A DNA stretch of 32,000 nucleotides from Archaeoglobus fulgidus DSM 4304 (GTDB lineage Archaea; Halobacteriota; Archaeoglobi; Archaeoglobales; Archaeoglobaceae), in contig NC_000917.1 in assembly GCF_000008665.1 (NCBI RefSeq), forward strand, positions 960,001 to 992,000, read 5' to 3'. Below are positions 5,024 through 24,353 of this stretch, in pieces (position 1 is the first letter of the stretch; each line of letters begins with the position of its first letter). The notes under the pieces are model-generated. The model was not told where the DNA came from. It did not search any database and saw only the letters and a program-made list of their open reading frames with translations. The position numbers were made by a program, and so were the translations under genes.

Positions 5024-6541
5024 ATGAAAGGGGCCATAGGTAAGATTTACGGCGAAGCGTCACCGTTTGAGTTCAACTTCGTGATTTTCAACCAGAAGCA
5101 GGTAAAGAGGGGAGATTACATTAAGGTTTGGAACGATGTTGACGGTTGGGTTGTTGCATACGTCGAGAGCATAGTTGCAAAGTCAAATGTCAGGGATAAG
5201 GAAATTAGGGAGATTGCAAACGGCTCGAAGGAAGTTTTTATCGGGAAAGCTGTTGTTCTCGGTAAGAGAGAGGATGGAAGGTTGAAGGTTCCGAGAAGTC
5301 CCTTCGTTCCGGGAGAGAGCGTTTTTCTAGCTGAAGATAAGCTGATTGCAGAAGTCCTTGGTTTGAGTGTGGACGGTGTTTACGTCGGTCTTCTTGGCGA
5401 TACCGGGGTTAAGGTAAAGCTCGATCCCAACAGCCTCGTGCAGAAGCACGTTTGCATTCTCGCAAAAACGGGAAGCGGCAAAAGCTACACTGCGGGTGTG
5501 ATTATAGAGGAGCTTCTCGAGAAAAACGTCCCTCTGCTGATTATTGACCCTCATGGAGAGTATCACTCGATGCGTTATCCAAACGAGTCTGTTGATGGCG
5601 ATTTTGGTGTCAAGCCGAAGGGCTACGAAGACCAGATACGCATTCTCGCTCCACCAATATCGCCTTTCGCCGAAAGAGCTGATGAGCTCCTCATCCTTGA
5701 CGGCGTGAATCTGTCAGCGGAGGAGCTCATCGAGCTAACGGGGCTGAAAAACCCAACGGCCCAAGCTCTGCTTTACCAGGCGCTGAAGGAGCTCAAAGAC
5801 GAAGACTACACAATCAGAGATATCATGGATGAGGTTGAAAGTATAAAGCACAACGGAAAGTGGACTCTTCTCGGGGCGCTGGCAAAGGTTGAGGAGTCAG
5901 GGCTTTTCGGAGAGAAACCCACAGACCTGAGAAAGCTCCTTCAACGCGGAAAGGCAACGATAATCGACCTTCGTGGAGTTGAGCCAACTTACCAGGATTT
6001 AATAGTCTCGAGGGTCTGCACCAAGCTTTTCGAGCTGAGAAAAAAGGGGGAGGTTGAACCTGGGATGATCGTGATTGAGGAGGCTCACAACTTCATTCCT
6101 GAAAGGGGATTTGACAAAGCGGTTTCTACGGGGATTCTGAGAACCATAGCCAGCGAGGGAAGGAAGTTCGGTCTCGGCCTCATGGTAATAAGTCAAAGGC
6201 CCGCGAGAGTTGATAAAAACGTGATAAGCCAGTGCAACACCCAAATCATTCTGAGAGTGACGAATCCAAACGACATAAACGCCATCAAAAACGGAGTTGA
6301 GGGGATTACGGCAGAGATGGTTGAGGAAATCAAACGCCTTCCGCCCGGGCATGCGATGATCGTCAGTCCGGAGCTTGAAAGGCCAGTTATCGTTAGAGTT
6401 AGGAGCAGGAGAAGCAAGCACGGTGAGGCTGTGAGCGTAACGAAGCCGAAGGAAGACAAGAAGAAAAAGAAACAGAAGAAGAGCAAAAAAGTTGAGGCGA
6501 AGAAGGAAAAGAAGGGGTTCCTGAGGAGGCTTTTCGGCTAA
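5024..6541 (+). CDS. HerA-like (FtsK/HerA superfamily, DUF87) ATPase with a lysine-rich C-terminal tail
   Basis: N-terminal barrel-like region (GDYIKVWNDVDGWVVAYVESIV). Walker A ILAKTGSGKSYT. Walker B MIVIEEAHNF. ISQRP motif. C-terminal KPKEDKKKKKQKKSKKVEAKKEKKGF. No NurA-like partner is adjacent. Confidence 0.85.
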   Translation: MKGAIGKIYGEASPFEFNFVIFNQKQVKRGDYIKVWNDVDGWVVAYVESIVAKSNVRDKEIREIANGSKEVFIGKAVVLGKREDGRLKVPRSPFVPGESVFLAEDKLIAEVLGLSVDGVYVGLLGDTGVKVKLDPNSLVQKHVCILAKTGSGKSYTAGVIIEELLEKNVPLLIIDPHGEYHSMRYPNESVDGDFGVKPKGYEDQIRILAPPISPFAERADELLILDGVNLSAEELIELTGLKNPTAQALLYQALKELKDEDYTIRDIMDEVESIKHNGKWTLLGALAKVEESGLFGEKPTDLRKLLQRGKATIIDLRGVEPTYQDLIVSRVCTKLFELRKKGEVEPGMIVIEEAHNFIPERGFDKAVSTGILRTIASEGRKFGLGLMVISQRPARVDKNVISQCNTQIILRVTNPNDINAIKNGVEGITAEMVEEIKRLPPGHAMIVSPELERPVIVRVRSRRSKHGEAVSVTKPKEDKKKKKQKKSKKVEAKKEKKGFLRRLFG

Positions 6542-7452
6542 TCCAAATCAATTATTTCGAGAGTGTAATCCCCAACACTCACGTAGGGTTTTTCGGCACT
6601 TTTGCTTTTCCTCACCATCTGCCTCCTAACGTGCTTGACTTCCCCTCCCGCGAGCAGGTCTGCAACGCTTGCACCATATGCTCGAGAAAAGGCCACCACC
6701 GGCGTTGTTAGCCTGGCATTAATCTCAATCACGTAGGGCTGGTCAGAGTAAACGATATCGACGCCAACGTATCCATTCAGACCTTCAACACACTCAACAG
6801 CCCTCACAGCCTCCTCCACAACCTCCCTTTTAACCTCATCGGATATCCTAGCCGGAACGACGGCTCCAGCATATCTGAAATTGTTGATAATCTGCTCGTT
6901 AACGCTCAGGCACTTCACGTCTTCTCCAACTGCAAGGCTGACGCTCAGGTTGATTCCCTCAATAAATTCCTGGGCAATGTGGCCGTCAGGAACCTCATCG
7001 CTGAAGCCTATCCCCTCTCCCGCACATGCCGTACGAGGCTTGATGATGAACTTGCAGTCGAGCGGCCTTAAGGAGGTTTGCGGAACCTGAACCTCCCCCC
7101 TCAACTTTTTGTAGAGTTCCCATTTGTCTGAGGTTACCGCAATTGCCCTGCTTGAAGAGCCGAGGTTTTCGCAGTACTTTTCAGCCTTCTTAGTCAGAGT
7201 GTAGAGCAGAAAATCGTCTTCAGGAGCGATGATCAGAAAGGCATCACTTTTCTCCAGATATTTCTCCATTGAGTCCATTGAGTCCACGGGGAGAGTGAAG
7301 AGGCATGAGAACTCAGGTCTGACGAATCCGGTGATTTCGTAGTAGTTCTTAAAGCCATCAAAGGCTGATTTAAACATCGCAAGGCCTTCAACGGCCGTAC
7401 TGTCCTCTATTCTTTCACCGCAGGTTGCGAACTCGAATAAAAAAAGTTTCAT
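6538..7452 (-). CDS. ATP-grasp ligase; possibly MfnD-like tyramine-L-glutamate ligase of methanofuran biosynthesis
   Basis: 304 aa. N-terminal MKLFLFEFATCGE... pre-ATP-grasp region, and C-terminal GYVGVDIVYSDQPYVIEINARLTTP typical of the ATP-grasp Mg/ATP site. The MfnD assignment is from memory of the COG1821-type family and is not verified. Confidence 0.7.
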   Translation of the reverse strand: MKLFLFEFATCGERIEDSTAVEGLAMFKSAFDGFKNYYEITGFVRPEFSCLFTLPVDSMDSMEKYLEKSDAFLIIAPEDDFLLYTLTKKAEKYCENLGSSSRAIAVTSDKWELYKKLRGEVQVPQTSLRPLDCKFIIKPRTACAGEGIGFSDEVPDGHIAQEFIEGINLSVSLAVGEDVKCLSVNEQIINNFRYAGAVVPARISDEVKREVVEEAVRAVECVEGLNGYVGVDIVYSDQPYVIEINARLTTPVVAFSRAYGASVADLLAGGEVKHVRRQMVRKSKSAEKPYVSVGDYTLEIIDLD

Positions 7453-7982
7453 ACCTCTATAATTTCTTCTTCGTCAGCATCTCCTTTTTCTTTTTCCTCA
7501 TCCTCATTAAGAACAATGGCAATATCAGCAGAGTTTTTGAGGGCCGTTGAGAAGCCGGGCTCGGCACCGATGATTATCGTCTCCTTTCCCATCTCCATTG
7601 CCTTCATCAAAACAGCCTTGAAGTCGGCGTCTCTCGTAACGAGGGCAACTGCATCAATCGAGTCGTTGTATATGAGCTCCATGGCTTCGACCGCCATCCT
7701 CACATCCACGTCTCCGGAAGTCACTATAGGCTCGAACCCCTGATTTTCTATTGCTTCAACAAGCTTTTCAGTGGCATATTGATTCAGAAAAACTTTGGCA
7801 ATCTTGATATCGCCATACTCAGAAAGAATTTCTCTAATCTCTTTCAAATTAATATTAAACTCCTTCCTGAGCATGTTTGGCCCATCCACAAGTACGCCAA
7901 CTTTCCTGCGCTGAGATAGTTTTCTCTTTGAGAGGTATTCTTTAATCCTCTGAATTCGCGATATCGTCGGCATGCTTTTCAA
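7449..7982 (-). CDS. NYN-domain (LabA/DUF88-like) protein, predicted RNase fold
   Basis: VGVLVDGPNM...DVDVRMAVEAMELIYNDSIDAVALVTRDADFKAVLMKAMEMGKETIIIG matches the NYN/LabA acidic motif pattern. Acidic tail. Its stop overlaps the ATP-grasp start (ATGA). Confidence 0.8.
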   Translation of the reverse strand: MKSMPTISRIQRIKEYLSKRKLSQRRKVGVLVDGPNMLRKEFNINLKEIREILSEYGDIKIAKVFLNQYATEKLVEAIENQGFEPIVTSGDVDVRMAVEAMELIYNDSIDAVALVTRDADFKAVLMKAMEMGKETIIIGAEPGFSTALKNSADIAIVLNEDEEKEKGDADEEEIIEV

Positions 7983-8091: not shown

Positions 8092-8448
8092 TCAGCTTCC
8101 CTTGTTTAGGTACTTCGCAACGCACTCCCGGAAGTGTTTAAGGTTAAAGGGCTTTCCCAGCACTTCCTTTGCCCCCAGTCTGAGCATTTTGCTCTCGAAC
8201 TCCTGATAGTAGGCCGTTACAACTATTACAACCGCCTCGGGATTGAGCTTGAAAATCTCCTTCGCAACCTCCACCCCACTTATATCCGGCATATTGATGT
8301 CCACGATTACCAAATCAGGCATGAGTTTTCTGTAAAGTTCCAACCCTTCCCGGCCGCTGCAAGCCGAGACAACTTCGAAGCTGCCAAGAATTTCCTTGTA
8401 AAGCTCGCAGATGCTGCAATCATCGTCAACGACGAGTATCTTCGTCAT
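8092..8448 (-). CDS. stand-alone CheY-like response-regulator receiver domain
   Basis: MTKILVVDDD...PDLVIVDINMPDISG...VVIVVTA...GAKEVLGKP carries the acidic pocket, phospho-acceptor Asp, and conserved T/K positions. The start was moved to the internal ATG at 8448; the track ORF extends 16 codons further. Confidence 0.85.
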   Translation of the reverse strand: MTKILVVDDDCSICELYKEILGSFEVVSACSGREGLELYRKLMPDLVIVDINMPDISGVEVAKEIFKLNPEAVVIVVTAYYQEFESKMLRLGAKEVLGKPFNLKHFRECVAKYLNKGS

Positions 8449-8514
8449 TATATTGGGATGCAACCAAAAAAATAAAAACTTTTCTTCGCATTTCATGAAC
8501 TAGCTGAAGTTTTA

Positions 8515-10380
8515 TTAAGGGGATTCGGTAACCCCACCATAACCCACGTAAAGAATCCTGTCCGGAGAGAGAGCGTTTATAACCTCCTTTCTGTGAGTTA
8601 CCGCAATCAGAGTTATCTTCGCCTCCCTTGCGAGCTCTGATATTTTTCTCGCCACCCTCACGGCCGTCATCTCATCCAGATGGGCGGCAAACTCGTCCAC
8701 AAGCATCAGGCTCGGTTTTTTGGCCAGACAGGCTGCGAGCTTGAACCTCTCCTTCTGCCCTGTTGAGAGCTCGTTGAACCTTGCTCTGTAGAGAACCGCG
8801 TCAGAGATTCCCGCCCTGTTCAGAACCTCCACTGCCAGATGAATATCTCCGGTTATGTCAAATATCTGCTCCAGAATACTTTTCTCGGTTATCTGCGGTT
8901 CGAGTTCGGACGGTATCATCGCAGCTATGCTGTCCACCACAACCTCCACCATCCCGCTGCTCGGCTTATACACATCATCGTCCAATTTCAAAGCCTCTCC
9001 TACAATCAACCTCAGAAAGGTGGTTTTTCCAGAACCGCTAGCACCGACGACGGCAACAATCTCTCCGGGTTTTATCTCCAGATTCACATCCCTCAGAACA
9101 TATCTTTCCACCACCCTCTGCCTGACTCCGAAGGACTCAAGGACGGTTCTTACTTCATCGCTAACCTTCTCCAGATCAAGGGTGCTTGCAAAGAGCTTCG
9201 AGACATTCCTGAATTTTAATTTCTCAAGAGGTTTAACGCTGCCGTATCTTGAAACACACAGTTTTCCCCCGTGGCCTCTCGCAACCTCGTCCTCCTCCAG
9301 AAACTTCCTTATGTACCTCTCAGCCTCTTCGCTAAGTGGCTTGTACAGAACCGGTTTTCCTGAAGCCGTATCCCATAGGTAGTAAAATCCAGCCTTCTCG
9401 AAGAAGGGGTTGAACCTGGCCATCTGGGCAATTGTTTCGACGAGGTGCTTTCTCATCCTCATCTCAGGGACTCTTCTTTCCTCAATCCACTCAACTGCAG
9501 TCCTGACTGCAAGAATTCCCAGCCCATCCGCTCTGTAGTCGGGATGAACAACGACCCTCGCAATTCTCGATGCTGCTGAGTTGCACTTCTTCATTGCCTC
9601 CTCGCTTGCCTCCTCCCATAGCCTGTGTCTCGCAACCTTTAGCGAGAAGCGGCTTCTTAATTTCCTGAACAATTCCGAAAGCTCTTTTTCTGGGGAGAAG
9701 ACGTTTTCAAACCACTCTTTGGGGAAAACCCTTTCTCTGATGTTTTCCACAATCTTTCCGTCAAGTTTTCTGTGCATCAGCGGCACAGGAGGGTCAACTC
9801 GGACGTACGCAACAACCTCAGGCTCGAATGGCTGTCTTTCGACGAGCTCGAAGATCAAAAATCGCGAAGCTGGAGTGGAGCCCTTTATCTCGACAATGTG
9901 CACATTCCTGCTTCCGCACTCGCAAACGGGCTTCGTGTTTGCCTCGATGAGGTTACCGCAGTCATAGCACTTCCACAGCGCAACCTTGCTTTTCTGGCTT
10001 GCGTAATGGTACTGCTCAAGCTCCGCGATCCTCTCAAAGTCCTTTTCGTAAACAGCCTCTCTCGCCCTGATTCGGTATCTGTAAACCTCCTTTCCGAAGC
10101 TGTATCGCGGAAGTTCCAGATTTCTTGAAAAAACGTCCCAGACCTTGATCCTCTCACTCCCGTAAAACTTGTACAGCTCGTAATCTGCGAAAAACAGTAT
10201 TTTTCTCCCGTAGATTTCCTTCGGCTCGTTTTTAATTACAACCTCAACAACATCACCTTCAAAGAGCCAGGCAGCGATGCCGGACATGTAAAGCGTCAAA
10301 CCGTTGTCGAGCTCAACCGCTCCAAACCACCTGTGCCGGTGCTTGGGCAACTCGTGAGATACTACTTTTGCGATCATCAA
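8515..10380 (-). CDS. fusion protein: N-terminal domain + Zn-ribbon + GNAT acetyltransferase-like domain + C-terminal ABC-type ATPase (COG2401-type); function unknown
   Basis: 621 aa. CxxC...CxC (CYDCGNLIEANTKPVCECGS). GNAT-like core RIARVVVHPDYRADGLGILAVRTAVEW. Walker A GASGSGKTT. ABC signature LSTGQKERF. Walker B LMLVDEFAAHLD. H-loop VTHR. No permease or substrate-binding gene is nearby. Confidence 0.8.
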   Translation of the reverse strand: MMIAKVVSHELPKHRHRWFGAVELDNGLTLYMSGIAAWLFEGDVVEVVIKNEPKEIYGRKILFFADYELYKFYGSERIKVWDVFSRNLELPRYSFGKEVYRYRIRAREAVYEKDFERIAELEQYHYASQKSKVALWKCYDCGNLIEANTKPVCECGSRNVHIVEIKGSTPASRFLIFELVERQPFEPEVVAYVRVDPPVPLMHRKLDGKIVENIRERVFPKEWFENVFSPEKELSELFRKLRSRFSLKVARHRLWEEASEEAMKKCNSAASRIARVVVHPDYRADGLGILAVRTAVEWIEERRVPEMRMRKHLVETIAQMARFNPFFEKAGFYYLWDTASGKPVLYKPLSEEAERYIRKFLEEDEVARGHGGKLCVSRYGSVKPLEKLKFRNVSKLFASTLDLEKVSDEVRTVLESFGVRQRVVERYVLRDVNLEIKPGEIVAVVGASGSGKTTFLRLIVGEALKLDDDVYKPSSGMVEVVVDSIAAMIPSELEPQITEKSILEQIFDITGDIHLAVEVLNRAGISDAVLYRARFNELSTGQKERFKLAACLAKKPSLMLVDEFAAHLDEMTAVRVARKISELAREAKITLIAVTHRKEVINALSPDRILYVGYGGVTESP

Positions 10381-10413
10381 AAGTTATTTTTCCCTCCAAG
10401 TTATACAATTTTC
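10381..10413. promoter_or_regulatory. 33-bp divergent intergenic region with two crossed TATA-like boxes (leaderless bidirectional promoter)
   Basis: aagTTATTTTTccctccaagTTATACAAttttc. TTATTTTT (10384..10391) is 23-30 nt upstream of the + strand GTG at 10414. TTGTATAA on the minus strand (10401..10408) is 21-28 nt upstream of the minus-strand ATG at 10380. Confidence 0.45.
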
Positions 10414-10755
10414 GTGAGAGGTCTGATTGTGAGAGAGCCCTTTGCATCCATGATAGTGAGGGGAGAAAAAAAATGGGAGATTAGGAAGACAAACACGAAC
10501 ATAAGGGGGGAGGTAATCATTCTGAGCCAGGGGTATGCGCTGGGAAAGGCCAAGCTCGCTGACGTTCTCGGGCCGTTTACCGTTGAGGAGCTTCTGGAGT
10601 TTAAGGATTACCACAGAGCGGACGAGGACTTTCTCAGAAGCTACTCAGGCGGAAAAAAACTATATGCCTGGGTTTTCGAGGAGCCAGAAGAGTTTGAGAA
10701 GAAGGTAAGGGTTAAAATACCTCGCGGAGCGCAAGTCTGGGTTAAGATTGACTGA
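10414..10755 (+). CDS. ASCH-domain (PUA-like beta-barrel) protein
   Basis: (V)RGLIVREPFASMIVRGEKKWEIRKTNTNIRGEVIILSQG...AWVFEEPEEFEKKVRVKIPRGAQVWVKI matches the ASCH pattern (L.I.QPWA..I..G.K..E.R). A GTG start at 10414 is needed to retain the first beta-strand. The track start at 10333 would overlap the divergent gene. Confidence 0.7.
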   Translation: MRGLIVREPFASMIVRGEKKWEIRKTNTNIRGEVIILSQGYALGKAKLADVLGPFTVEELLEFKDYHRADEDFLRSYSGGKKLYAWVFEEPEEFEKKVRVKIPRGAQVWVKID

Positions 10756-15979: not shown

Positions 15980-16214
15980 TTATATCTTTTTCAGCAACTC
16001 CAGAAATTCGTTCTTGTCCATTCCAACATCATTTATGATTTCTCTGAGTATGCCCCTTCCAAGCTCTTCACACTGAGGAACAGTACACGACTGTCATCCT
16101 ACCGTCTGGATGCTTGAGAATTACATGGCTCCCCTTTCGCCGAACTATCTCAAAACCGAGTTTGGCTAAAGCCTTTATTACTTTTTCAGCTTTAACCGGT
16201 TTTAACTTCAACAA
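15980..16214 (-). pseudogene. hicA: HicA-family toxin gene, frameshifted
   Basis: A TTG start overlaps the hicB 3' end: (M)LKLKPVKAEKVIKALAKLGFEIVRRKGSHVILKHPDGRMTVVYCSSV* (stop 16068..16070). The canonical C-terminus TVPQCEELGRGILREIINDVGMDKNEFLELLKKI* continues in another frame to 15980. The shift lies near 16075-16085. Confidence 0.65.
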
Positions 16215-16407
16215 CCTGCACCCCGATGAACTCTCCATCTTCTACGTTTTTCTTAACTTCCAAGTAGAGTTCAATCGCCTCTTTCACCCTTTCCATGAGC
16301 TCATCGAGGCTTTTAGCCTGAGTGTGGCAGCCCGGGAGAGAAGGGACTTTCACCACATAGTAACCGTCCTCGTCTTTTTCTATCACAATAGCGAATTTCA
16401 TGAACAA
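16192..16407 (-). CDS. hicB: HicB-family antitoxin (UPF0150)
   Basis: FAIVIEKDEDGYYVVKVPSLPGCHTQAKSLDELMERVKEAIELYLE is the classic HicB N-terminal domain. Confidence 0.8.
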   Translation of the reverse strand: MFMKFAIVIEKDEDGYYVVKVPSLPGCHTQAKSLDELMERVKEAIELYLEVKKNVEDGEFIGVQVVEVKTG

Positions 16408-16553
16408 TTTTAAGTTGTGGAAAGCTAAATAGGTTTCATTTTTGTAAAAATGTTGCTATGATTCGATATTGATCACAATTTGATTTGCTGGATTAGATGG
16501 AAGCAGATAATTTAGCATTGCTGAGTTGTGGAATTGTGAGGCAGCTTAAAAAA

Positions 16554-16981
16554 CTAAATCCCAACAACCTCCAGAAACTCAACCCTCTTAAAGTCTTCAT
16601 CGAAGGTGGCAATCTTTTTGATGCCGAAATGCTTGCAGGTTGCTGCTATTAGCGCATCATTGGGTAAGAGCCCATATGAGTTCATAATTTCAGCGGAAAT
16701 TTTCTCTACTTCTGGAGCGATAGATAAGGTTTGAGCTAAATCCAGAAGGCGCTTTATCTTGGCAAAATCAAATTTTACTGCTTCTTTAACAAATTCGGGG
16801 TTTTTTCTCAACTTCTCTTTTCGGTAACGAGCTTGAGAAAGACGGACACAACCTCACTGTAAACCACAACATTTCGATAAAGCCCTTCTCTGTACAACTC
16901 AATAAACTTATTCTTAGCTTTCTCATCTCCCTCAAGAATCTTCAGAAACACAGAGGAGTCAACAAAAACCCCACTCCTCAA
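16554..16981 (-). pseudogene. vapC: PIN-domain VapC toxin gene, frameshifted at an A6 run
   Basis: A TTG start overlaps the vapB stop: (M)[56 protein letters not shown] (stop 16808..16810). It continues in another frame as (L)RKNPEFVKEAV...[38 protein letters not shown]. The break is at GAGAAAAAACCCC. Confidence 0.7.
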
Positions 16982-17153
16982 GCTCCCTCAAAGCTTTTAG
17001 CGTATCCTTTCCCTTAAGAATCCCAAAGACTTCATCAACAACTTCTTCCACCTTTTCGAGCTTAATTCTCACTCTCTCCCCCTCCTTTAAATCGACCTTC
17101 TGCAGGGGTTTGAAGACTCCGTTTTCGTAGATGGCTTCGATGATTTTTGGCAT
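16959..17153 (-). CDS. vapB: DUF104-family VapB-type antitoxin
   Basis: [33 protein letters not shown]... The N-terminus is shared by 7 paralogues in this window. It overlaps the downstream PIN gene. Confidence 0.8.
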
Positions 17154-17170
17154 GTATGTAATTTTTCTCG

Positions 17171-17189
17171 GGATAAGAAAAGGGTTTCG
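17171..17189 (-). promoter_or_regulatory. conserved BRE/TATA-like box of the DUF104 antitoxin promoter (copy 1; 1 nt shorter than the consensus)
   Basis: Coding strand reads CGAAACCCTTTTCTTATCC, 17 nt upstream of ATG 17153. Confidence 0.5.
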
Positions 17190-17246
17190 TTGGTTGATAA
17201 AAGCAAAGTCAAACCTTATACCTTGCTGATTAATTTAAATAATGGT

Positions 17247-17525
17247 TCAATAAACTTTTTCTCTGAAATGAATGCTGTAGATGAAAATGGTCTCGTCCTC
17301 AACGTTTATCTTGAAAATTATTCTTACCTCTCCAACCCTCAGTCTTAAGAAACCATCCCAGACTCCTTTCAACCTTTTTATGTCCATTCTCTGGATTGGT
17401 AAAACTCCACTCTCCAAGGAGTTCACGAGTTCTTGAATTTTGCTCAATAGAATGCTCCTCTTTCCTTCATCGAGCTTTTCAAGAAACTTTATTGCTTTTT
17501 TGTGGTATCTCACTTTCCATGCCAT
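17247..17525 (-). CDS. relE: RelE/ParE-family toxin (apparently intact)
   Basis: 92 aa: ...[43 protein letters not shown]. Overlaps the upstream antitoxin by 16 nt. Confidence 0.75.
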
Positions 17526-17698
17526 TCTTCAAATTCACCTTCGTATTCATCAGGCTTTCCAGCTATCTTATCGATTTCTTCTTGCTCTTCATCGGAAACG
17601 TAAGGAGTAATTTCCATCAAAGCCTTAATCAGGACTTCCTTGAATTTTCTCTCTATGATTTCTTCAAGCTCATCCTTTGAGATTTGAATGACTTCCAT
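17510..17698 (-). CDS. acidic antitoxin partner of RelE-like toxin
   Basis: 62 aa: [62 protein letters not shown]. Assigned by position and overlap. TTTTTAAATTTT box about 30 nt upstream. Confidence 0.6.
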
Positions 17699-17837
17699 GA
17701 ATCCATTTATTTCTGAAAATTTAAAAACTTACCGAAGCTGGCTTCCATGATTTCTGGGATGTTTGTGACGGTTGCTTGACTTGCGCTTCAAGATTTGTAA
17801 CGGAATTGCGAGAAGCATGACATCAAAAACTAAAGCT

Positions 17838-18213
17838 TTAAAGCTTAACAACCTCCAGAAAGTCCACTCTCTTAAAATCCTCATCGAAGGTGGCTATCTT
17901 TTTGATGTCGTAGTGTTTGCATGTGGCGGCGATTAAGGCGTCATTGGGTAAAAGGTCGTATTCTCGAAACACTTCGAGAAAAACGCTTAGTGGTAGCTTT
18001 TCCAAAACTTCTATTTCCACTCCGTCCAATAAATTTGCCACCAATTCAGCAATTTCTCGATTGGTTTTTCTTGTGAGCCTTTTCAAGACAAACAAAGTTT
18101 CCTCAATTACAGAGATGGAGGTTATTAAATCGGAGTCGGCATATTTCACTAATATTGCCTTTGCAGTCTCGGTAAACTCTGTTTCAAAAATCAAGTTTAC
18201 AATGAAGTTCGTA

Positions 18214-18230
<17 letters not shown>
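17838..18230 (-). CDS. vapC: PIN-domain VapC toxin (intact)
   Basis: 130 aa: MRIFLDTNFIV...IEETLFVL...[38 protein letters not shown]. The acidic PIN residues are present. Confidence 0.85.
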
Positions 18231-18707
<477 letters not shown>

Positions 18708-18715
<8 letters not shown>

Positions 18716-18881
18716 CGAATTTCACGTAATCGTCCTCGTTAATCTCCTCATCCACAAACTGCTTTTCATCAGCTTCCGGTTCATCCGGTGGAATTGTGCT
18801 AAGAATGACCTCTTTCAGGATGCTCGGCAGTTCCTCCCTCAGAACCTCTCGGACTGCCTGTTTTATTACCTGAATGTCCAT
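18708..18881 (-). CDS. acidic antitoxin partner (57 aa) of the RelE-like gene
   Basis: MDIQVIKQAVREVLREELPSILKEVILSTIPPDEPEADEKQFVDEEINEDDYVKFDE*. Its stop overlaps the toxin start (ATGAATGA). Similar in style to the 17510..17698 antitoxin. Below the ORF-track cut-off. Confidence 0.55.
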
Positions 18882-18990
18882 GTTTTAATTTCAGAATAAA
18901 AAATTTTAAGTCTTTCGTCTCATCAGCGATCTCGTCTAAGGTTCAACAACGAATTAATCCTCCCTCTAAATAGCTGGAAGGTTGCAATCA

Positions 18991-19455
18991 ATTATAGCTC
19001 AACAACCTCCAGAAAGTCAACCCTCCTGAAATCCTCATCGAAGGTGGCTATCTTTTTGATACCGAAATGCTTGCAGGTTGCAGCTATTAAAGCGTCGTTG
19101 GGTAGGAGTCCAAATTCAAAGGCTAACTCAACTGAGGACTCCAGGATATCTCGTTATGAATCAGAAGAGCGATAATCTCCGAGTTCAGGCTATCAAGTAT
19201 AAATTCGGTCATGTACTCTCTAACAGTCCCGTACTTTTATTTTTCCTTTCTGAATTTGTCCTTTAGGGCGTATTTTCCGGTTTTACCGAATATTCTTTCG
19301 GTCTCCATATACAGAAGTTTGAAGAAAGTCTCCTCGATTACGTTCGGGCTTGTTATCGCCTCCTCCTCGTTTAGAGCGTAATCTAATATTCTCACGGCTT
19401 TATTCGAACCGTAGTAGTGCCTGATGAAAACAGAGGTATCAATAAAGATTCTCAT
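18991..19455 (-). pseudogene. vapC: PIN-domain VapC toxin gene with an in-frame TAA and a frameshift
   Basis: [15 protein letters not shown]...KDKFRKEK* (TAA 19237..19239) then in frame KYGTVREYMTEFILDSLNSEIIALLIHNEISWSPQLS* (19123..19125). The conserved end [51 protein letters not shown] is in another frame, open from 19153. Confidence 0.7.
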
Positions 19456-19630
19456 CCTCAAATCTCCTTTCAAGTTCTCTGATTTTCTCCTCAGGTAATT
19501 TTGCCATTATAAACTTCTCGACATCGATTTTTTTCAGTAATATTCTTATCTTCTCCCCTTCCTTCAAATCCACCTTCTGCAAAGGCTTGAAGACTCCGTT
19601 CTCGTAAATTGCCTCGATTATCTTGGGCAT
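19439..19630 (-). CDS. vapB: DUF104-family VapB-type antitoxin
   Basis: [34 protein letters not shown]... Overlaps the PIN start by 17 nt. Confidence 0.8.
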
Positions 19631-19721
19631 GTTAATAACAGGCTTGGGGAATAGAAAATGGTTGCGCTGTTGAGATTTTATCTGGACTTCTCTAAGTATG
19701 GCTCACTACTCTGGCTGATCC

Positions 19722-20378
<657 letters not shown>

Positions 20379-20416
20379 TTAGGTTTGCAATTTTTGGATT
20401 ATAGAATTAACTAAGA

Positions 20417-20680
20417 CTAGCCTCTCTCCAATCTCTCGTAGATTTTCTTTCTGTGACCGACTGCAAGCAGGTAGACAGTATTTCCTCCACCATGTAAACA
20501 ACCCTGTAATTTCCCACAACTAACGAGTATTTGCCTTTCAGCTTCCCCGTGAAGAGGTTTTCCTCTGAAGGGCTCTTCTGCGAGTTCGAGTATCTTTTCT
20601 ACCAATTTTTCCTGTACGTGCTTCGGAAGCCTCTTAAAGAGTTTCTCGAATTTTTGAGTTGCTACAATTTAAAAGCTCAT
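20417..20680 (-). pseudogene. relE: RelE/ParE-family toxin gene with a nonsense codon and two compensating frameshifts
   Basis: MSF*IVATQKFEKLFKRLPKHVQEKLVEKILELAEEPFRGKPLHG (TAA 20669..20671). The canonical core KLKGKYSLVVGNYRVVYMVEE is in a second frame. The reading then returns to the first frame for NTVYLLAVGHRKKIYERLERG*. The shifts are at a G4 run (20545..20548) and near 20482. Confidence 0.65.
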
Positions 20681-20874
20681 GGCAGCTCTTTCAGAATCTC
20701 CTTGAAGTTTCTGGTTTTTCCTTGCCTTATCTCATTCTCCGACTTGAAAATAGCCTCCATCAGCTCCTTATCCGCCATAATGTCAAGTGTTTCTAGAATC
20801 TCTTCCAGTAAATTTCTTGTTTGAACTAAAACTTTTATTACCTCCTCATCGAAGAGAGGTGTTATTTCGTTCAT
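20677..20874 (-). CDS. antitoxin partner of the decayed RelE-like gene
   Basis: 65 aa: ...LMEAIFKSENEIRQGKTRNFKEILKELP. ATGA overlap with the toxin start. AAAATTATATATT box and a GTGTA..TACAC inverted repeat lie upstream. Confidence 0.6.
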   Translation of the reverse strand: MNEITPLFDEEVIKVLVQTRNLLEEILETLDIMADKELMEAIFKSENEIRQGKTRNFKEILKELP

Positions 20875-21025
20875 ATTTCTTCTTTTCTGGCGAGGTCAAT
20901 ATATAATTTTGTGTACAGTATTACACGAGGTTTCGTTAAACTTGTGAATGATGAAAAGAAGAAAGGGGGGTCTCATTGTTGGGTGTTTTGTTTGCTTCAC
21001 TTCGAATCTGCGTCCCACTCTGACC

Positions 21026-21451
21026 TTATTGCAACCTTCTCTTAACCTCTTCAAACTCTTCCAGCAAATAGTAAGCTTCAATACCCGCTTTTTTGGCATT
21101 CTCAGCCATAATTCGGTCGTTGGTTATCAAAATTGAGTTTGTGAGCTTTGCTGTGGCGATGAAGTAAGCGTCGATTGCTCTGCTTCCAGTTTTTAGGGCA
21201 ACTTCGAATGCAATTTCGTCAGGATTCTCAATCAGTGCAACATCCTCTAAAATTTCAGAAATTATTTTCTCAACAATCTCAGAATGGAATCTTCTTGAAA
21301 GAATGCAGGTCATCTCAACTTTAAAGACCTTAGGATTTAAAATTCTCCCTTTAATTTCGCTTAAAACCTTTTCTGCCGCACTTGTTCTGTTCTCATCGAA
21401 TTCAAAAATAAAATCGGCGAAAATTGATGTATCAACTGTATATCTCATCAT
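21026..21451 (-). CDS. vapC: PIN-domain VapC toxin (intact; second sequence class)
   Basis: 141 aa: [11 protein letters not shown]...[54 protein letters not shown] overlap with vapB. Confidence 0.85.
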
Positions 21452-21627
21452 CTCCTCTCCGAAATGAATTCTGCAACTATGTCCGAATCCACTTTCACTC
21501 TGTATTTTCTAAGTCTTTCAACAAGATTTCCGGCTATAATTTTCACTTTCTCCCCCTCTCTCAGATCAACTTTCTGCAAAGGCTTGAAGACTCCGTTTTC
21601 GTAAACAGCTTCGATGATTTTTGGCAT
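21448..21627 (-). CDS. vapB: DUF104-family VapB-type antitoxin
   Basis: [34 protein letters not shown]... The track ORF extends 24 codons upstream through the promoter box and was trimmed to the conserved ATG. Confidence 0.8.
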
Positions 21628-21643
21628 GTCTGTAATTTTTCTT

Positions 21644-21663
21644 GGAAGAAGAAAAGGGTTTCG
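21644..21663 (-). promoter_or_regulatory. conserved BRE/TATA-like box (consensus copy)
   Basis: Coding strand reads CGAAACCCTTTTCTTCTTCC, 16 nt upstream of ATG 21627. It abuts the stop of the upstream vapC (21671). Confidence 0.5.
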
Positions 21664-21670
21664 TTGGAAG

Positions 21671-22090
21671 TTAGAGTTCAACAACCTCCAGAAACTCAAC
21701 CCTCCTGAAATCCTCGTCGAAAGTGGCTATCTTGTTGATGCCGTAATGTTTGCATGTGGCGGCGATTAGGGCGTCGTTAGGCAGAAGTTTGTATTTTTTA
21801 ATAAACTTCGTCAAACCGACACCAAAGTTGCAAGGAAGCAGCTCGAAGAGGCCAAAAAGCTCCTCCACCGGTTTGAGATCCATATCTATTGTTAAAATTT
21901 TCTTCCTCAGCTCGTAAGGTTTTAAACCGGAGGTTGCACGGAGATAACCGTAGATTACTTCAGATACGACTATGTCATTTACGATTCCCTCAAAGGTGCC
22001 GTCCTCAACCCTTTCAAGAAGTTCTGTAGCTTCATCTTTCGTGTCGGCTAAGTGGTGCAGGAAAACGTTTGAGTCAAAGAAAACCCTCAC
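21671..22090 (-). CDS. vapC: PIN-domain VapC toxin (intact)
   Basis: 139 aa: [14 protein letters not shown]...VSEVIYGYL...[38 protein letters not shown]. Confidence 0.85.
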
Positions 22091-22259
22091 TTTCGATCTC
22101 CTCGATTATCTCTTCCATTTCGCAACCTTTCAGCAACCCTCTCGTTTTTGCTACGACTTCACTCACAACAACCCTCACTCTCTCCCCCTCCTTTAAATCC
22201 ACCTTCTGCAAGGGTTTGAAGACGCCATTCTCGTAGATGGCTTCGATGATTTTTGGCAT
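22074..22259 (-). CDS. vapB: DUF104-family VapB-type antitoxin
   Basis: [34 protein letters not shown]... Overlaps vapC by 17 nt. Confidence 0.8.
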
Positions 22260-22275
22260 GTTAATGATTTGTCTT

Positions 22276-22295
22276 GGAAGAAGAAAAGGGTTTCG
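22276..22295 (-). promoter_or_regulatory. conserved BRE/TATA-like box (consensus copy)
   Basis: CGAAACCCTTTTCTTCTTCC, 16 nt upstream of ATG 22259. Confidence 0.5.
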
Positions 22296-22317
22296 GAAAC
22301 ATTGAGCTTATTCTCAG

Positions 22318-22575
22318 TCATTTGTAAGCGTGGTTGTGGTGTTTGAAGGTCACGAATTTAACCGTATCCTCTTCCACTTTGAAGATAATTACGAATTTCC
22401 CAACGTGTGCCCTTCTCAATCCTTTCATCTGCCCCCTTAAAGGTTTATAGTGTTCAGGTTGTTTGATAATCTCTTCAACTTTTGATTGAAGCCTTTTTAG
22501 AAGCTCTGGGTCTTTTTCCTTTAACTTTTTGGCTATTTTCAGGAATTCTTCAGAAAACTGTGCTTTGTAGTTCAT
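22318..22575 (-). CDS. relE: RelE/ParE-superfamily toxin (intact)
   Basis: 85 aa: ...QPEHYKPLRGQMKGLRRAHVGKFVIIFKVEEDTVKFVTFKHHNHAYK. ATGA overlap with the upstream antitoxin. Confidence 0.7.
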   Translation of the reverse strand: MNYKAQFSEEFLKIAKKLKEKDPELLKRLQSKVEEIIKQPEHYKPLRGQMKGLRRAHVGKFVIIFKVEEDTVKFVTFKHHNHAYK

Positions 22576-22790
22576 ATATCCTCAAAGAGTTTTTTGACTT
22601 CCTCCAAATTGCTGCAAACTTTACTTCTACCCTGCTCAAGATCTGAAAGTCCTCTCTGTATGCTATCTATAAATTCAGCGTCAGAAAAAATCAGAATCTC
22701 ATCTTTAAGTTCTTCCAGCTCTCCCCTTCTTTTTTCAAGCTGTCTGATAAAGTTTTCAATATCCTCAATTATATCCAGCAACACCTTCAC
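22572..22790 (-). CDS. antitoxin partner of the RelE/ParE-like toxin
   Basis: 72 aa with a GTG start: ...SDAEFIDSIQRGLSDLEQGRSKVCSNLEEVKKLFEDI (RelB/ParD-like C-terminal pattern). CCTTATATTTAC box 25-30 nt upstream. Confidence 0.6.
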   Translation of the reverse strand: MKVLLDIIEDIENFIRQLEKRRGELEELKDEILIFSDAEFIDSIQRGLSDLEQGRSKVCSNLEEVKKLFEDI

Positions 22791-22941
22791 AATCTAATTT
22801 TGTTGAATCGTAAATATAAGGTTTTAGACTCCTTGATTATGCATGTAGATTTCACCCAGCCTTAGATATCAAAGATGAAAAAGGCGGAGATGTCAGAGGA
22901 GATATCTGCAAAAACCTATCAAACTCCACAAACTCTTTCTC

Positions 22942-22961
22942 GGAAGAAGAAAAGGGTTTCG
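22942..22961 (-). promoter_or_regulatory. orphan copy of the conserved BRE/TATA-like box with no antitoxin ORF behind it
   Basis: A perfect CGAAACCCTTTTCTTCTTCC, but the sequence 16 nt downstream has no ATG or MPKII frame. Confidence 0.45.
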
Positions 22962-23007
22962 TTGGTCGGTATTTTGTCTGGACTGCTTCAATTCGAATCT
23001 GCGTTCG

Positions 23008-23097
23008 CTACTCCAACCCACTACTGCAGGCTCGTCTTCGCCTGTTTTCGTTGTCTAAGAATAAATCGAGCCAGACTGACGTATCTACGACAATCAT
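23008..23097 (-). pseudogene. vapC: VapC (second class) remnant: about 22 N-terminal codons fused to the last codons and 3' flank of the gene (internal deletion)
   Basis: [22 protein letters not shown]... runs directly into CTGCAGTAG. The same 3' flank (..GCAGATTCGAA..) follows the class-2 vapC stop at 21026. Confidence 0.55.
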
Positions 23098-23282
23098 CTT
23101 CTCTCTTCCAAGAATTTCTCGATGTCCTTTTCTGTAAGTTTAAACTTTCCTTGATATTTTTTTATCACATCCAATATTCCTTCTTCTATTCTTAGCTTAA
23201 TCCTCTCCCCCTCCTTCAAATCCACCTTCTGCAAAGGCTTGAAGACTCCGTTCTCGTAAATTGCCTCGATGATTTTTGGCAT
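23094..23282 (-). CDS. vapB: DUF104-family VapB-type antitoxin
   Basis: [35 protein letters not shown]... ATGA overlap with the vapC remnant. Confidence 0.8.
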
Positions 23283-23298
23283 GTTTGTGATTTGTCTT

Positions 23299-23318
23299 GG
23301 AAGAAGAAAAGGGTTTCG
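23299..23318 (-). promoter_or_regulatory. conserved BRE/TATA-like box (consensus copy)
   Basis: CGAAACCCTTTTCTTCTTCC, 16 nt upstream of ATG 23282. Confidence 0.5.
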
Positions 23319-23575
23319 CTGATAGAGTTGCTCCTCAACTCGTCAAGAAGAATCAATAATCAATAAATCCCAGCTACAGCATGAAGTCTGATAGAATCGA
23401 GAAAGTTAGAGATCATGGGCAAAGTACTGAGATTAAAGGTATTGGAATAGCAGCTTCATCCAAACTTCTTCGACGAGGAGAACGGCCTTTCTGAATTTCA
23501 TTTTGAATTCATCCTGTCTCTACGATGCCATTCACGAATGGCAAAGAAAGAAAACCCGTTCCCACTGAAAGCTGA

Positions 23576-23770
23576 TTGACGATACTGTTCTCAAAGATGT
23601 CCTCAAAGCGAACAGGATCATTTTACACTGAAATCGCCAAAGAAGTCCTGAAATGCTGCGGGAAAAAATACATCATCGATAAAGCGCCTTGGTTTAGATT
23701 CCTTGGTTTAGAATACGAACATCAGACCATCCGAAGAAATTCTTTCATTGCTAAAAATAAAAATTGTTAA
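23576..23770 (+). mobile_element. possible C-terminal remnant of an archaeal transposase gene (very degraded)
   Basis: KYIIDKAPWFRFLGLEYEHQTIRRNSFIAK loosely resembles the (D)GxxWYxxALxxLGLxxxHxTxGxRNxIE pattern of some archaeal IS transposases. There is no intact upstream catalytic region. It lies at the right edge of the TA island. Confidence 0.3.
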
Positions 23771-23794
23771 TAAATATTAGATTTAACCGACTAA

Positions 23795-24220
23795 TTAACC
23801 TCCTACAGTAACGTGGGTCATTAATATTGGTTTGTTAGTTTGGATATCAACTAACGTAAGTTCTACGTATTGACCACCGTATCCTGATAGTGTAATTGTC
23901 TCGGTCTCGCCGACCTTAAGTAAATTATCGCTGCAACCTCCACTGCTGCCTAGAGCATTTGATTCTTCTTTTCCATTCACCAGTACTTTAATACTTGTAC
24001 AATTTATTGGATCTCCACCCATGTGTTTTAGTTCCACTGTATCAGCACTACTACCAGTTCTTACTTGTAATTGAGCGCTTGGCGGAGCTGCAGGTGCCAC
24101 ATTCGACATCCCAAACACAAAGCTCGCAATCACTGCCGCCAGTATGACGGTGATGGCCACCATCAGTATCACGCCAATCACTGGCGACACACCTTTCTCA
24201 TCCATCTTTCTCCTTACCAT
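23795..24220 (-). CDS. archaeal type IV pilin-like protein (DUF1628-type N-terminus, class III signal peptide)
   Basis: MVRRKMDEKG/VSPVIGVILMVAITVILAAVIASFVFG is the canonical archaeal pilin N-terminus. The C-terminal domain is beta-rich with two Cys and an NCT sequon. The gene is visibly AT-rich relative to its neighbours. Confidence 0.75.
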   Translation of the reverse strand: MVRRKMDEKGVSPVIGVILMVAITVILAAVIASFVFGMSNVAPAAPPSAQLQVRTGSSADTVELKHMGGDPINCTSIKVLVNGKEESNALGSSGGCSDNLLKVGETETITLSGYGGQYVELTLVDIQTNKPILMTHVTVGG

Positions 24221-24280
24221 CTAACCACCTCCCTAACCGGGGTTAAACCCCATTAGCATTATCATTATTACCATAACTGG

Positions 24281-24295
24281 TATATAACCCTTTCG
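24281..24295 (-). promoter_or_regulatory. BRE + TATA promoter of the pilin-like gene
   Basis: Minus strand reads CGAAAGGGTTATATACC. TATA is about 61 nt upstream of ATG 24220. The leader contains a GGGGTT-t-AACCCC hairpin and a GGGAGGTGG Shine-Dalgarno. Confidence 0.5.
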
Positions 24296-24353
24296 ATTTG
24301 GCAGGTAAAAGAGTGAAAAATTTTCACCGGTTATGATGGTCACACAGTGTGAG

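Follow-up and report, generated by a model that had tools for sequence, protein, structure and literature searches.

A candidate acyl-transfer and deacylation pair: a GNAT-ABC ATPase fusion protein and its ASCH-domain partner in Archaeoglobus fulgidus

N4-acetylcytidine (ac4C) is a heat-adaptive RNA mark: its level increases with temperature in hyperthermophiles, and it sustains growth in the heat. It is installed by RNA cytidine acetyltransferases of the TmcA/NAT10/Kre33 type, among them TkNat10, which requires ATP, acetyl-coenzyme A (acetyl-CoA) and heat. Enzymes that take the mark off have been described among proteins with an ASCH domain: mutagenesis of the Thermus thermophilus protein TTHA0113 identified a catalytic dyad formed by K23 and E26, and 19 ASCH proteins, three of them from Archaeoglobus fulgidus DSM 4304, have been tested (10.64898/2026.02.27.708502). 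The two kinds of gene are also known to be associated, since ASCH genes of the YqfB clade are found in operons with TmcA/Nat10, and TRIP4-like ASCH domains are fused to, or in operons with, NAT10/Kre33-like acetyltransferases predicted to modify cytosines, the latter being reported in one sentence and a supplementary figure (10.64898/2026.08.01.741249). Here we describe a locus of A. fulgidus DSM 4304 in which a GNAT acyltransferase is joined to an ABC-type ATPase in one protein and is encoded next to a divergent ASCH gene. The locus occupies positions 8515 to 10755 of a 32,000-nucleotide stretch (contig NC_000917.1, positions 960,001 to 992,000), the whole of which is referred to as the window. 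We report its domain content, the conservation of its catalytic motifs, and the linkage and fusion of the two genes. The two products most likely form a functionally coupled system of acyl transfer and deacylation, restricted to thermophiles and with RNA cytidine as the substrate.

The fusion gene lies on the minus strand. The list of open reading frames (ORFs) of the window confirmed its frame at 8515..10380, within which ATG 10377 is the true start, because the N-termini of the orthologues read MIAKV or MRAKV and the database protein P0001, identical over its full length, has 620 residues. The gene thus extends over 8515..10377, with its stop codon TAA at 8515-8517, and encodes 620 residues. 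The initial annotation, which had counted from TTG 10380, gave 621 residues and a gap of 33 bp to the neighbouring gene; its description of the protein was correct apart from this one start codon, and from ATG 10377 the gap measures 36 bp (10378..10413). On the other side of this divergent intergenic region, the ASCH-domain gene announced by that annotation is indeed present (10414..10755, plus strand, 113 residues; Pfam ASCH, E 1e-9, 39.2 bits against a cut-off of 21.2). Its start was placed at GTG 10414, as ATG or GTG occupies the same position in the orthologues. The 36-bp spacer contains two A/T-rich TATA-like boxes, arranged back to back: TTATTTTT for the ASCH gene and, on the other strand, TTGTATAA for the fusion gene. 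The distance of each box to its start codon, about 25-30 nt, would fit leaderless archaeal transcripts. The divergent layout is kept in Archaeoglobi, with a spacer of variable length.

The association of the two genes was followed in a sample of 80 genomic loci encoding the GNAT-ABC family, in which ORFs were called and all neighbours clustered. An ASCH orthologue adjoins the fusion gene in 24 of the 80, and it is the sole neighbour family that recurs beyond local synteny. This adjacency is found in at least five archaeal lineages (Archaeoglobi, Baldr-, Njord- and Heimdallarchaeota, and Thermoprotei) and in three orientations. Among the 19 Archaeoglobi-like loci (L001-L019) the ASCH gene diverges from the fusion gene in 17, as it does in three Baldrarchaeota-like ones; in two loci of Thermoprotei and one of Heimdallarchaeota it stands immediately upstream with the same direction of transcription, and it is convergent downstream in locus L034 and one Njordarchaeota locus. 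The other frequent neighbours are lineage-specific and functionally unrelated, resembling flavin reductase, creatininase, NikR and CPBP protease, among others, by a reading of their sequences. A reverse scan, starting from the ASCH side with a narrow ASCH alignment as the query, found a GNAT-ABC gene no more than 4 kb away in 27 of 80 metagenome loci; in 24 of these pairs the genes are on opposite strands, in one the GNAT-ABC gene follows on the same strand 18 nt downstream, and in two they are fused.

Fusion is also frequent among bacterial proteins. A single polypeptide of 692-772 residues, containing the N-terminal domain, the GNAT, the ABC cassette and a C-terminal ASCH domain, was found in 61 bacterial protein clusters; those with a named source belong to Chloroflexota, Caldiserica, Rhodothermus profundi and Ardenticatena maritima. 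The fused ASCH domains belong to the same group as the separate ones: a hidden Markov model made from the archaeal stand-alone ASCH neighbours alone detects them with E values of 1e-22 to 1e-41, and that of the fusion protein P0200 is 43% identical to the ASCH protein of the window over all 113 residues. The genomic contexts of the triple fusions (Ardenticatena, Rhodothermus and one metagenome-assembled genome) are mutually unrelated. The co-occurrence of the two families across genomes, on which the initial annotation had made its proposal depend, therefore goes beyond expectation (24 of 80 loci, 27 of 80 metagenome loci and 61 fused clusters), and the gene fusion is the strongest evidence for the pairing. 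We conclude with high confidence that the GNAT-ABC and ASCH proteins work together and that the GNAT-ABC protein is not a transporter subunit.

The 620-residue protein is built of four parts: an N-terminal β domain, the GNAT, a Zn ribbon inserted in the GNAT, and the ABC ATPase. The combination of Zn ribbon, GNAT and a complete ABC ATPase in one protein, as first annotated, is borne out by motifs, Pfam and the structural model. AlphaFold models were obtained for the full-length protein (predicted local distance difference test, pLDDT, 85; predicted template modelling score, pTM, 0.71) and for residues 1-386 (pLDDT 82.6, pTM 0.83), and conservation was scored on an alignment of 20 orthologues from many phyla, to which the statements below on invariant residues of the GNAT-ABC protein refer. 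The N-terminal domain (about residues 1-95; 10093..10377, minus strand) is all-β by the secondary structure of both models and had no Pfam match at E<0.05; W17, G19, G33, W37 and W80 are invariant in it. The Zn-ribbon insertion (residues 133-164; 9886..9981, minus strand) is found in the N-terminal half of the GNAT and shows the pattern C137-x2-C140...C152-x-C154, in which C137 and C152 never vary, at least 90% of the orthologues have C140 and the fourth ligand is Cys or His. Weak Pfam matches to Zn_ribbon_PaaD, NOB1 and rubredoxin-like families occur in orthologues. Apart from generic ABC cassettes, no solved structure was found for the GNAT-ABC family.

The GNAT module comprises about residues 96-350 (9328..10092, minus strand), was recognised by Pfam and Foldseek, and holds, besides the Zn ribbon, two long inserted helices. 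Motif A, the acyl-CoA pyrophosphate-binding loop, was located by conservation at residues 271-287 (RIARVVVHPDYRADGLG; 9517..9567, minus strand). Both motif A (RIARVVVHPDYRxDGxG) and motif B (ETIAQMARxNPFFEKxGF) vary little or not at all: in the former R271, I272, R274-V276, H278-R282, D284, G285 and G287 do not vary, and the same is true of N323-PFFEK-G330-F331 in the latter. The loop typical of the superfamily, Q/R-x-x-G-x-G/A following strand β4, corresponds to R282-A-D-G285-L-G287, so that the acetyl-CoA-binding site expected of a GNAT-like region is intact as well as invariant. The Pfam matches of the window protein itself (residues 272-332, E 2e-3) are under the curated thresholds, with 18.9 bits against 27 for Acetyltransf_7 and 17.2 against 20.7 for Acetyltransf_1. 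Generic GNAT families were matched by all 12 orthologues scanned, with E values down to 6e-7, and three of the orthologues (P0059, P0023 and P0022) exceed the threshold for Acetyltransf_1, Acetyltransf_7 or both. The TmcA/NAT10-type family GNAT_acetyltr_2 (PF13718) was matched by 8 of the 12, always under its threshold, the best E value being 0.0045. No match to DUF1726, to the helicase-type P-loop ATPase or to the C-terminal tRNA-binding domains of TmcA/NAT10 appeared in the Pfam scans.

A Foldseek search of the PDB with the model of residues 1-386 returned 36 matches at E<=1e-3, and all those listed are GNAT enzymes. The GNAT assignment is sound, since all 12 orthologues match GNAT families, motifs A and B are almost invariant and the model matches solved GNATs. 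The structural comparison of this module with TmcA/NAT10, also proposed at the outset, gave the following ranking: the ten best fold matches are all Kre33/NAT10 chains (E 3.5e-6 to 9e-5), and other GNATs follow at 2e-4 or worse. The latter include the tRNA-acetylating toxins AtaT/TacT/KacT, PaiA, polyamine and arylalkylamine N-acetyltransferases, and RimI. In the alignments, the motif A segment falls on residues 623-657 of human NAT10 (RVVRIAVHPDYQGMGYG), and on other GNATs as well. A profile of the N-terminal half compared with PDB sequences gave marginal matches to GNAT motif A alone, and the similarity to NAT10 therefore resides in the fold ranking and not in the sequence. The GNAT and Zn-ribbon module has a calculated isoelectric point of 9.1, the remaining parts of the protein being near neutral.

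The ABC-type ATPase cassette comprises residues 386-620 (8518..9222, minus strand; Pfam ABC_tran, residues 429-564, E 8e-19). Its motifs are complete, with the Walker A at 445-453, the signature LSTGQ at 537-541, the Walker B and catalytic Glu at D561-E562, and the H-loop at H595. The Walker A GASGSGKTT, the signature and the Walker B LVDEF are invariant or nearly so, and the strictly invariant residues are G445, S447, G448, G450-T453, L537-Q541 and D561-E562. Two positions depart from the usual pattern: the H-loop His is replaced by Asn in several orthologues from some Thermoprotei, and the Q-loop region has a conserved E/P pattern instead of Q. By the general mechanism of ABC ATPases, a single cassette such as this one would have to form an ATP-sandwich homodimer.

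The nearest Foldseek relatives of the cassette are transporter-type nucleotide-binding domains, MJ0796/LolD, HrtA, FtsE and YbbA, with target-normalised template modelling (TM) scores of 0.70-0.77 and 20-26% identity. This likeness to domains of the MJ0796/LolD, HrtA and FtsE type, together with the frequent annotation as 'ABC transporter ATP-binding protein', could be taken to mean that the protein is the ATPase subunit of an ABC transporter, in which the GNAT would be regulatory and the permease encoded elsewhere. We consider this extremely improbable, and a transporter subunit was rejected as a candidate. No ABC permease or binding-protein gene is found near the fusion gene in the window, and none is conserved beside it in the 80 loci, which come from many phyla, so that the genomic context agrees with the first annotation on this point; moreover, the partner that is conserved, and even fused, is a soluble domain related to nucleic acids.

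The ASCH partner can be identified with a protein already studied. It carries the octapeptide G17-x-K19-x-x-E22-x-R24, whose K, E and R are the same throughout the orthogroup, in stand-alone and fused forms alike, and it is about 50% identical to T. thermophilus TTHA0113 (PDB 1WK2/2DP9; E 7e-27). The primers published for Afu1ASCH match the window exactly at 10432-10456 and 10738-10752, after restoring one T missing in the printed forward primer, and the ASCH gene of the window is therefore Afu1ASCH (10.64898/2026.02.27.708502). In that work the protein is of the GKER type, removes ac4C34 from Escherichia coli tRNA in vitro and hydrolyses free ac4C slowly, incompletely at 4 h; neither the neighbouring GNAT-ABC gene nor the linkage is mentioned there. 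The published construct begins at GTG 10429 (M-REPFAS...), five codons after the conserved start GTG 10414 (MRGLIVREPF...). It thus probably lacks five N-terminal residues, which by alignment coincide with the start of the domain in TTHA0113, and this truncation may contribute to the weak activity of Afu1ASCH.

An enzymatic role is not the only one that could be assigned to this domain. PUA-like domains often serve as RNA-binding modules fused to RNA-modifying enzymes (PMC7641849), and the ASCH protein could be a PUA-like targeting subunit that binds RNA or modified bases, while the enzyme acetylates a target other than a base, such as an aminoacyl-tRNA or a ribosomal or other RNA-bound protein. 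The C-terminal position of the fused ASCH would suit a targeting domain, the next-best GNAT folds after NAT10 are the aminoacyl-tRNA-acetylating AtaT/TacT/KacT and RimI, and the very slow evolution of the family, with over 50% identity between phyla and even between domains of life, points to a partner conserved to the degree of tRNA or the ribosome. We nevertheless regard this arrangement as unlikely, because the catalytic K, E and R are invariant even when the domain is fused, the orthogroup holds the proven amidohydrolases Afu1ASCH and TTHA0113, and no clear shift of tRNA by Afu1ASCH was seen in the published assay.

The hydrolysis of free ac4C by Afu1ASCH raises another alternative, namely that the pair acts on the pool of free nucleosides or nucleotides, in the salvage or detoxification of N4-acetylated cytidine derived from the turnover of acetylated RNA, with the GNAT-ABC protein handling an acyl or CoA step. 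YqfB and human EOLA1 have been proposed to deacetylate free ac4C for pyrimidine salvage, and in Pyrococcus furiosus the ASCH gene (L081) is two genes away from a phosphoribosyl pyrophosphate synthetase, the fusion gene (L084/L085) being two genes away from a xanthine/uracil permease and uracil phosphoribosyltransferase. These contexts were seen in P. furiosus assemblies only and are not kept in the 80 loci; an acetyltransferase and an ATPase have no obvious role in salvage, and both the Zn ribbon and the basic character of the GNAT module point to a polymeric substrate. A function in salvage is thus distinctly improbable, and the preferred reading continues to be that of an acyltransferase and a deacylase acting on RNA.

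The GNAT-ABC family is compact and evolves very slowly. Archaeal orthologues, from Archaeoglobi, Thermococci, Desulfurococcales, other Thermoprotei, Korarchaeota, Njord-, Baldr- and Heimdallarchaeota, and ANME-1, are 51-87% identical to the window protein, and bacterial members share about 47-54% identity with the archaeal ones. All the named source organisms are known as thermophiles. When a profile of the N-terminal 386 residues was compared with 1.84 billion representative proteins, about 10 full-length representatives at 50% identity were recovered. The same search yielded a looser second tier of far more divergent GNAT-ABC proteins of 550-890 residues (P0239-P0262 and similar; locus L089), some of which have a long insert between GNAT and ABC; one of them, P0239, weakly matches the model of the Druantia protein DruA. 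A contig labelled 'Nanobdellati archaeon' (L003) carries a fusion gene 77% identical to that of the window together with a divergent ASCH gene of the Archaeoglobi type, and this bin label is probably wrong. Databases list the family as 'ABC-type ATPase fused to a predicted acetyltransferase domain', 'GNAT family N-acetyltransferase' or 'ABC transporter ATP-binding protein'. The GNAT-ABC architecture is thus already catalogued, and the biochemistry of ASCH proteins and their general link to NAT10-like acetyltransferases are the subject of the 2026 preprints. Our literature searches found no paper on the GNAT-ABC family, nor any description of its conserved coupling and fusion with an ASCH of the TTHA0113 type, its restriction to thermophiles or its extreme conservation.

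A role in conflict, with the GNAT as a toxin, the deacetylating ASCH as its antidote and the ABC ATPase sensing invaders, was also considered. GNAT, ASCH and ATPase domains co-occur in (PIN)-GNAT-EVE operons, which are predicted to be defence or toxin-antitoxin systems (PMC7641849), one of the second-tier GNAT-ABC proteins has the weak DruA match, and the PADLOC models mad3, mad8 and AriA match the fusion protein. All the PADLOC matches (mad3, mad8, AbiLi and AriA) are, however, confined to the generic ABC cassette, on which ground the candidate defence system was rejected. The family is extremely conserved, its neighbours are varied and mostly of a housekeeping type with no recognisable defence genes, and a toxin and its antidote on one chain, as would be the case in the 61 fused clusters, would be atypical. 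All this makes a conflict system highly improbable.

How the coupled acyl-transfer and deacylation system might work can be outlined from these features. The large protein would be an acyl-CoA-dependent N-acyltransferase, with a GNAT fold nearest to that of the NAT10/Kre33 RNA cytidine acetyltransferases. Binding of ATP would dimerise two ABC cassettes head to tail, as in all ABC ATPases, and the basic GNAT and Zn-ribbon modules may engage RNA. The ATP cycle could then clamp or remodel the substrate and gate the access of the target base to the GNAT site, a role played in TmcA/NAT10 by the helicase-type ATPase. The ASCH partner would act as an amidohydrolase on N4-acylcytidine and so reverse or proof-read the mark. 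The likeliest substrate would be a cytidine, or another exocyclic base amine, in tRNA or rRNA, and the purpose is probably the adaptation of RNA to high temperature. The substrate of the acyltransferase, the coupling to ATP and a physical complex of the two proteins are the elements of this scheme that we infer. The full statement, including a cytidine of nucleic acid or of a nucleoside as the substrate, is accordingly put forward as tentative, a little short of an even chance.

Several observations weigh against this scheme. The fold match to NAT10 is partial (query-normalised TM about 0.25, identity 13-18%), the likeness to it in sequence is limited to motif A, and the ABC domain is nearer to transporter-type domains than to the soluble RNA- or ribosome-binding ABCE/ABCF. 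In Desulfurococcales and in Thermococcales the two genes are not neighbours; in the latter, as in P. furiosus, both are present but apart. Afu1ASCH was among the weaker enzymes of the published set and gave no clear tRNA shift, and all 19 ASCH proteins of that set remove ac4C in vitro, an activity which its authors caution may be a remnant one (10.64898/2026.02.27.708502); being common to all, it does not discriminate between substrates. Thermococcus kodakarensis in which Nat10 is deleted, or its catalytic His mutated, loses all detectable ac4C, and the fusion protein is therefore not a bulk ac4C writer there under the conditions used, if that species has it, as is likely. A writer and an eraser in one polypeptide would, finally, be a futile cycle unless they were reciprocally regulated. 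Bifunctional enzymes regulated in this manner are well known, such as the SpoT-type synthetase/hydrolases and GlnE, which both transfers and removes adenylyl groups, so that such a combination on one chain would not have to end in futility. The initial annotation had proposed that the pair installs an acyl mark and reads or removes it. The pairing stands, and so does the eraser, as Afu1ASCH deacetylates ac4C in vitro; the GNAT-ABC protein, for its part, is a candidate writer.

A bolder version of the scheme can be drawn, although we regard it as doubtful. The locus would encode a second machine by which thermophiles acylate nucleic acids at the expense of ATP and independently of Nat10, in which the GNAT is the writer, the ABC the motor and the ASCH the eraser or proof-reader, within one complex or one chain, and which installs a mark missed by ac4C surveys and needed for life at high temperature. 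Candidate marks would be a site- or condition-specific N4-acylcytidine, another acyl group, N6-acetyladenosine, for which no writer is known, or an acetylated base of DNA.

The remaining genes near the locus probably do not belong to the system. A receiver-domain gene (8092-8448, minus strand; Pfam Response_reg, E 1e-22) follows the fusion gene on the same strand, and the initial annotation had suggested that both are co-transcribed. This arrangement is conserved solely in the closest relative (L001), and the receiver gene is preceded by a T-rich terminator and TATA-like stretch of its own. The 66-bp gap between the fusion stop codon and the receiver ATG (8448-8514) contains TTTTTATTTTTTT, which could be an archaeal oligo-T terminator and, lying about 25 nt before the receiver ATG, also act as TATA box for a leaderless transcript of that gene. 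The receiver gene was rejected as an operon member on both counts and is probably not part of the unit. Further downstream are a gene for a TIGR00288 NYN-domain protein (7449-7982, minus strand) and one for an MfnD-like ATP-grasp protein (6538-7452, minus strand), which overlap by 4 nt and probably form an operon; they follow the fusion gene in the closest relative only and were not retained as partners. Nor were the nearby HerA, Mer-like and Alba genes, which do not recur beside the fusion gene in other lineages; the first of these encodes a HerA-type hexameric ATPase (5024-6541, plus strand).

Another part of the window, 16000-24300, differs in composition, with a GC content of 0.39-0.41 against 0.47-0.53 in most other parts. 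A 163-nt segment recurs in it as seven diverged direct repeats at intervals of 632-1291 nt, and it holds at least three ORFs encoding PIN-domain proteins, all on the minus strand (17838-18230, 21026-21451 and 21671-22090). This region resembles a series of VapC-type toxin-antitoxin cassettes in tandem. It also holds, at 23795-24220, a gene for an archaeal type IV pilin.

The GNAT-ABC proteins are among the most conserved uncharacterised proteins of thermophilic archaea, are present in thermophilic bacteria too, and are linked through their genes, and in bacteria within one polypeptide, to an enzyme able to remove ac4C in vitro. The locus thus offers a concrete handle on a possible active removal or editing of RNA acetylation in cells. 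If the large protein were an ATP-dependent RNA acyltransferase, it would represent a second architecture for ATP-gated base acetylation, in which an ABC cassette replaces the helicase; the triple fusion would be a natural writer-eraser fusion, and the system would be a candidate for a determinant of thermophily. As the proteins are thermostable and one of the partners has been purified before, the idea is open to direct test.

Compared with the systems described so far, the locus shares parts with each of them. Soluble ABC ATPases such as ABCE1/RLI, ABC-F and component A2 of methyl-coenzyme M reductase, which appear among the sequence matches, also have ABC cassettes without a permease. They differ in having two tandem cassettes, whereas the window protein has one and would have to homodimerise, and its cassette is closer in fold to the nucleotide-binding domains of transporters. 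The (PIN)-GNAT-EVE operons (PMC7641849) contain the same triad of GNAT, ASCH and P-loop ATPase, likewise predicted to act on a nucleic-acid base; they are, however, patchy in distribution, linked to defence and prophages, and equipped with EVE and PIN domains and an AAA+ ATPase (AAA_17), whereas the GNAT-ABC family is highly conserved, restricted to thermophiles and has an ABC ATPase, with neither EVE nor PIN.

On the ASCH side, the closest relatives are TTHA0113 (TthASCH) and the GKER/TRIP4-like clade, which includes EOLA1 and TRIP4. The window protein shares with them the G-x-K-x-x-E-x-R signature, in addition to its identity of about one half with TTHA0113, and differs in that Afu1ASCH is slower and lacks a clear tRNA shift. 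The YqfB-TmcA operons and the ASCH-NAT10/Kre33-like fusions resemble the present pair in that a predicted cytosine acetyltransferase is linked or fused to an ASCH domain, but the text that describes the fusions makes no mention of an ABC ATPase (10.64898/2026.08.01.741249). The comparison with TmcA, NAT10, Kre33 and TkNat10 is the most informative. As in these enzymes, a P-loop ATPase and a GNAT are found in one polypeptide, and motif A of TmcA/NAT10/Kre33, VHPDY(Q/R)xxGxG, is common to the GNAT of the window; TmcA/Nat10 genes, too, are linked in operons to genes for ASCH deacetylases. The ATPase is of another kind and in another place, a C-terminal ABC cassette instead of a helicase-type domain N-terminal to the GNAT, and the window protein has, in addition, a unique N-terminal β domain and a Zn ribbon within the GNAT, features recognised here from the sequence and the model.

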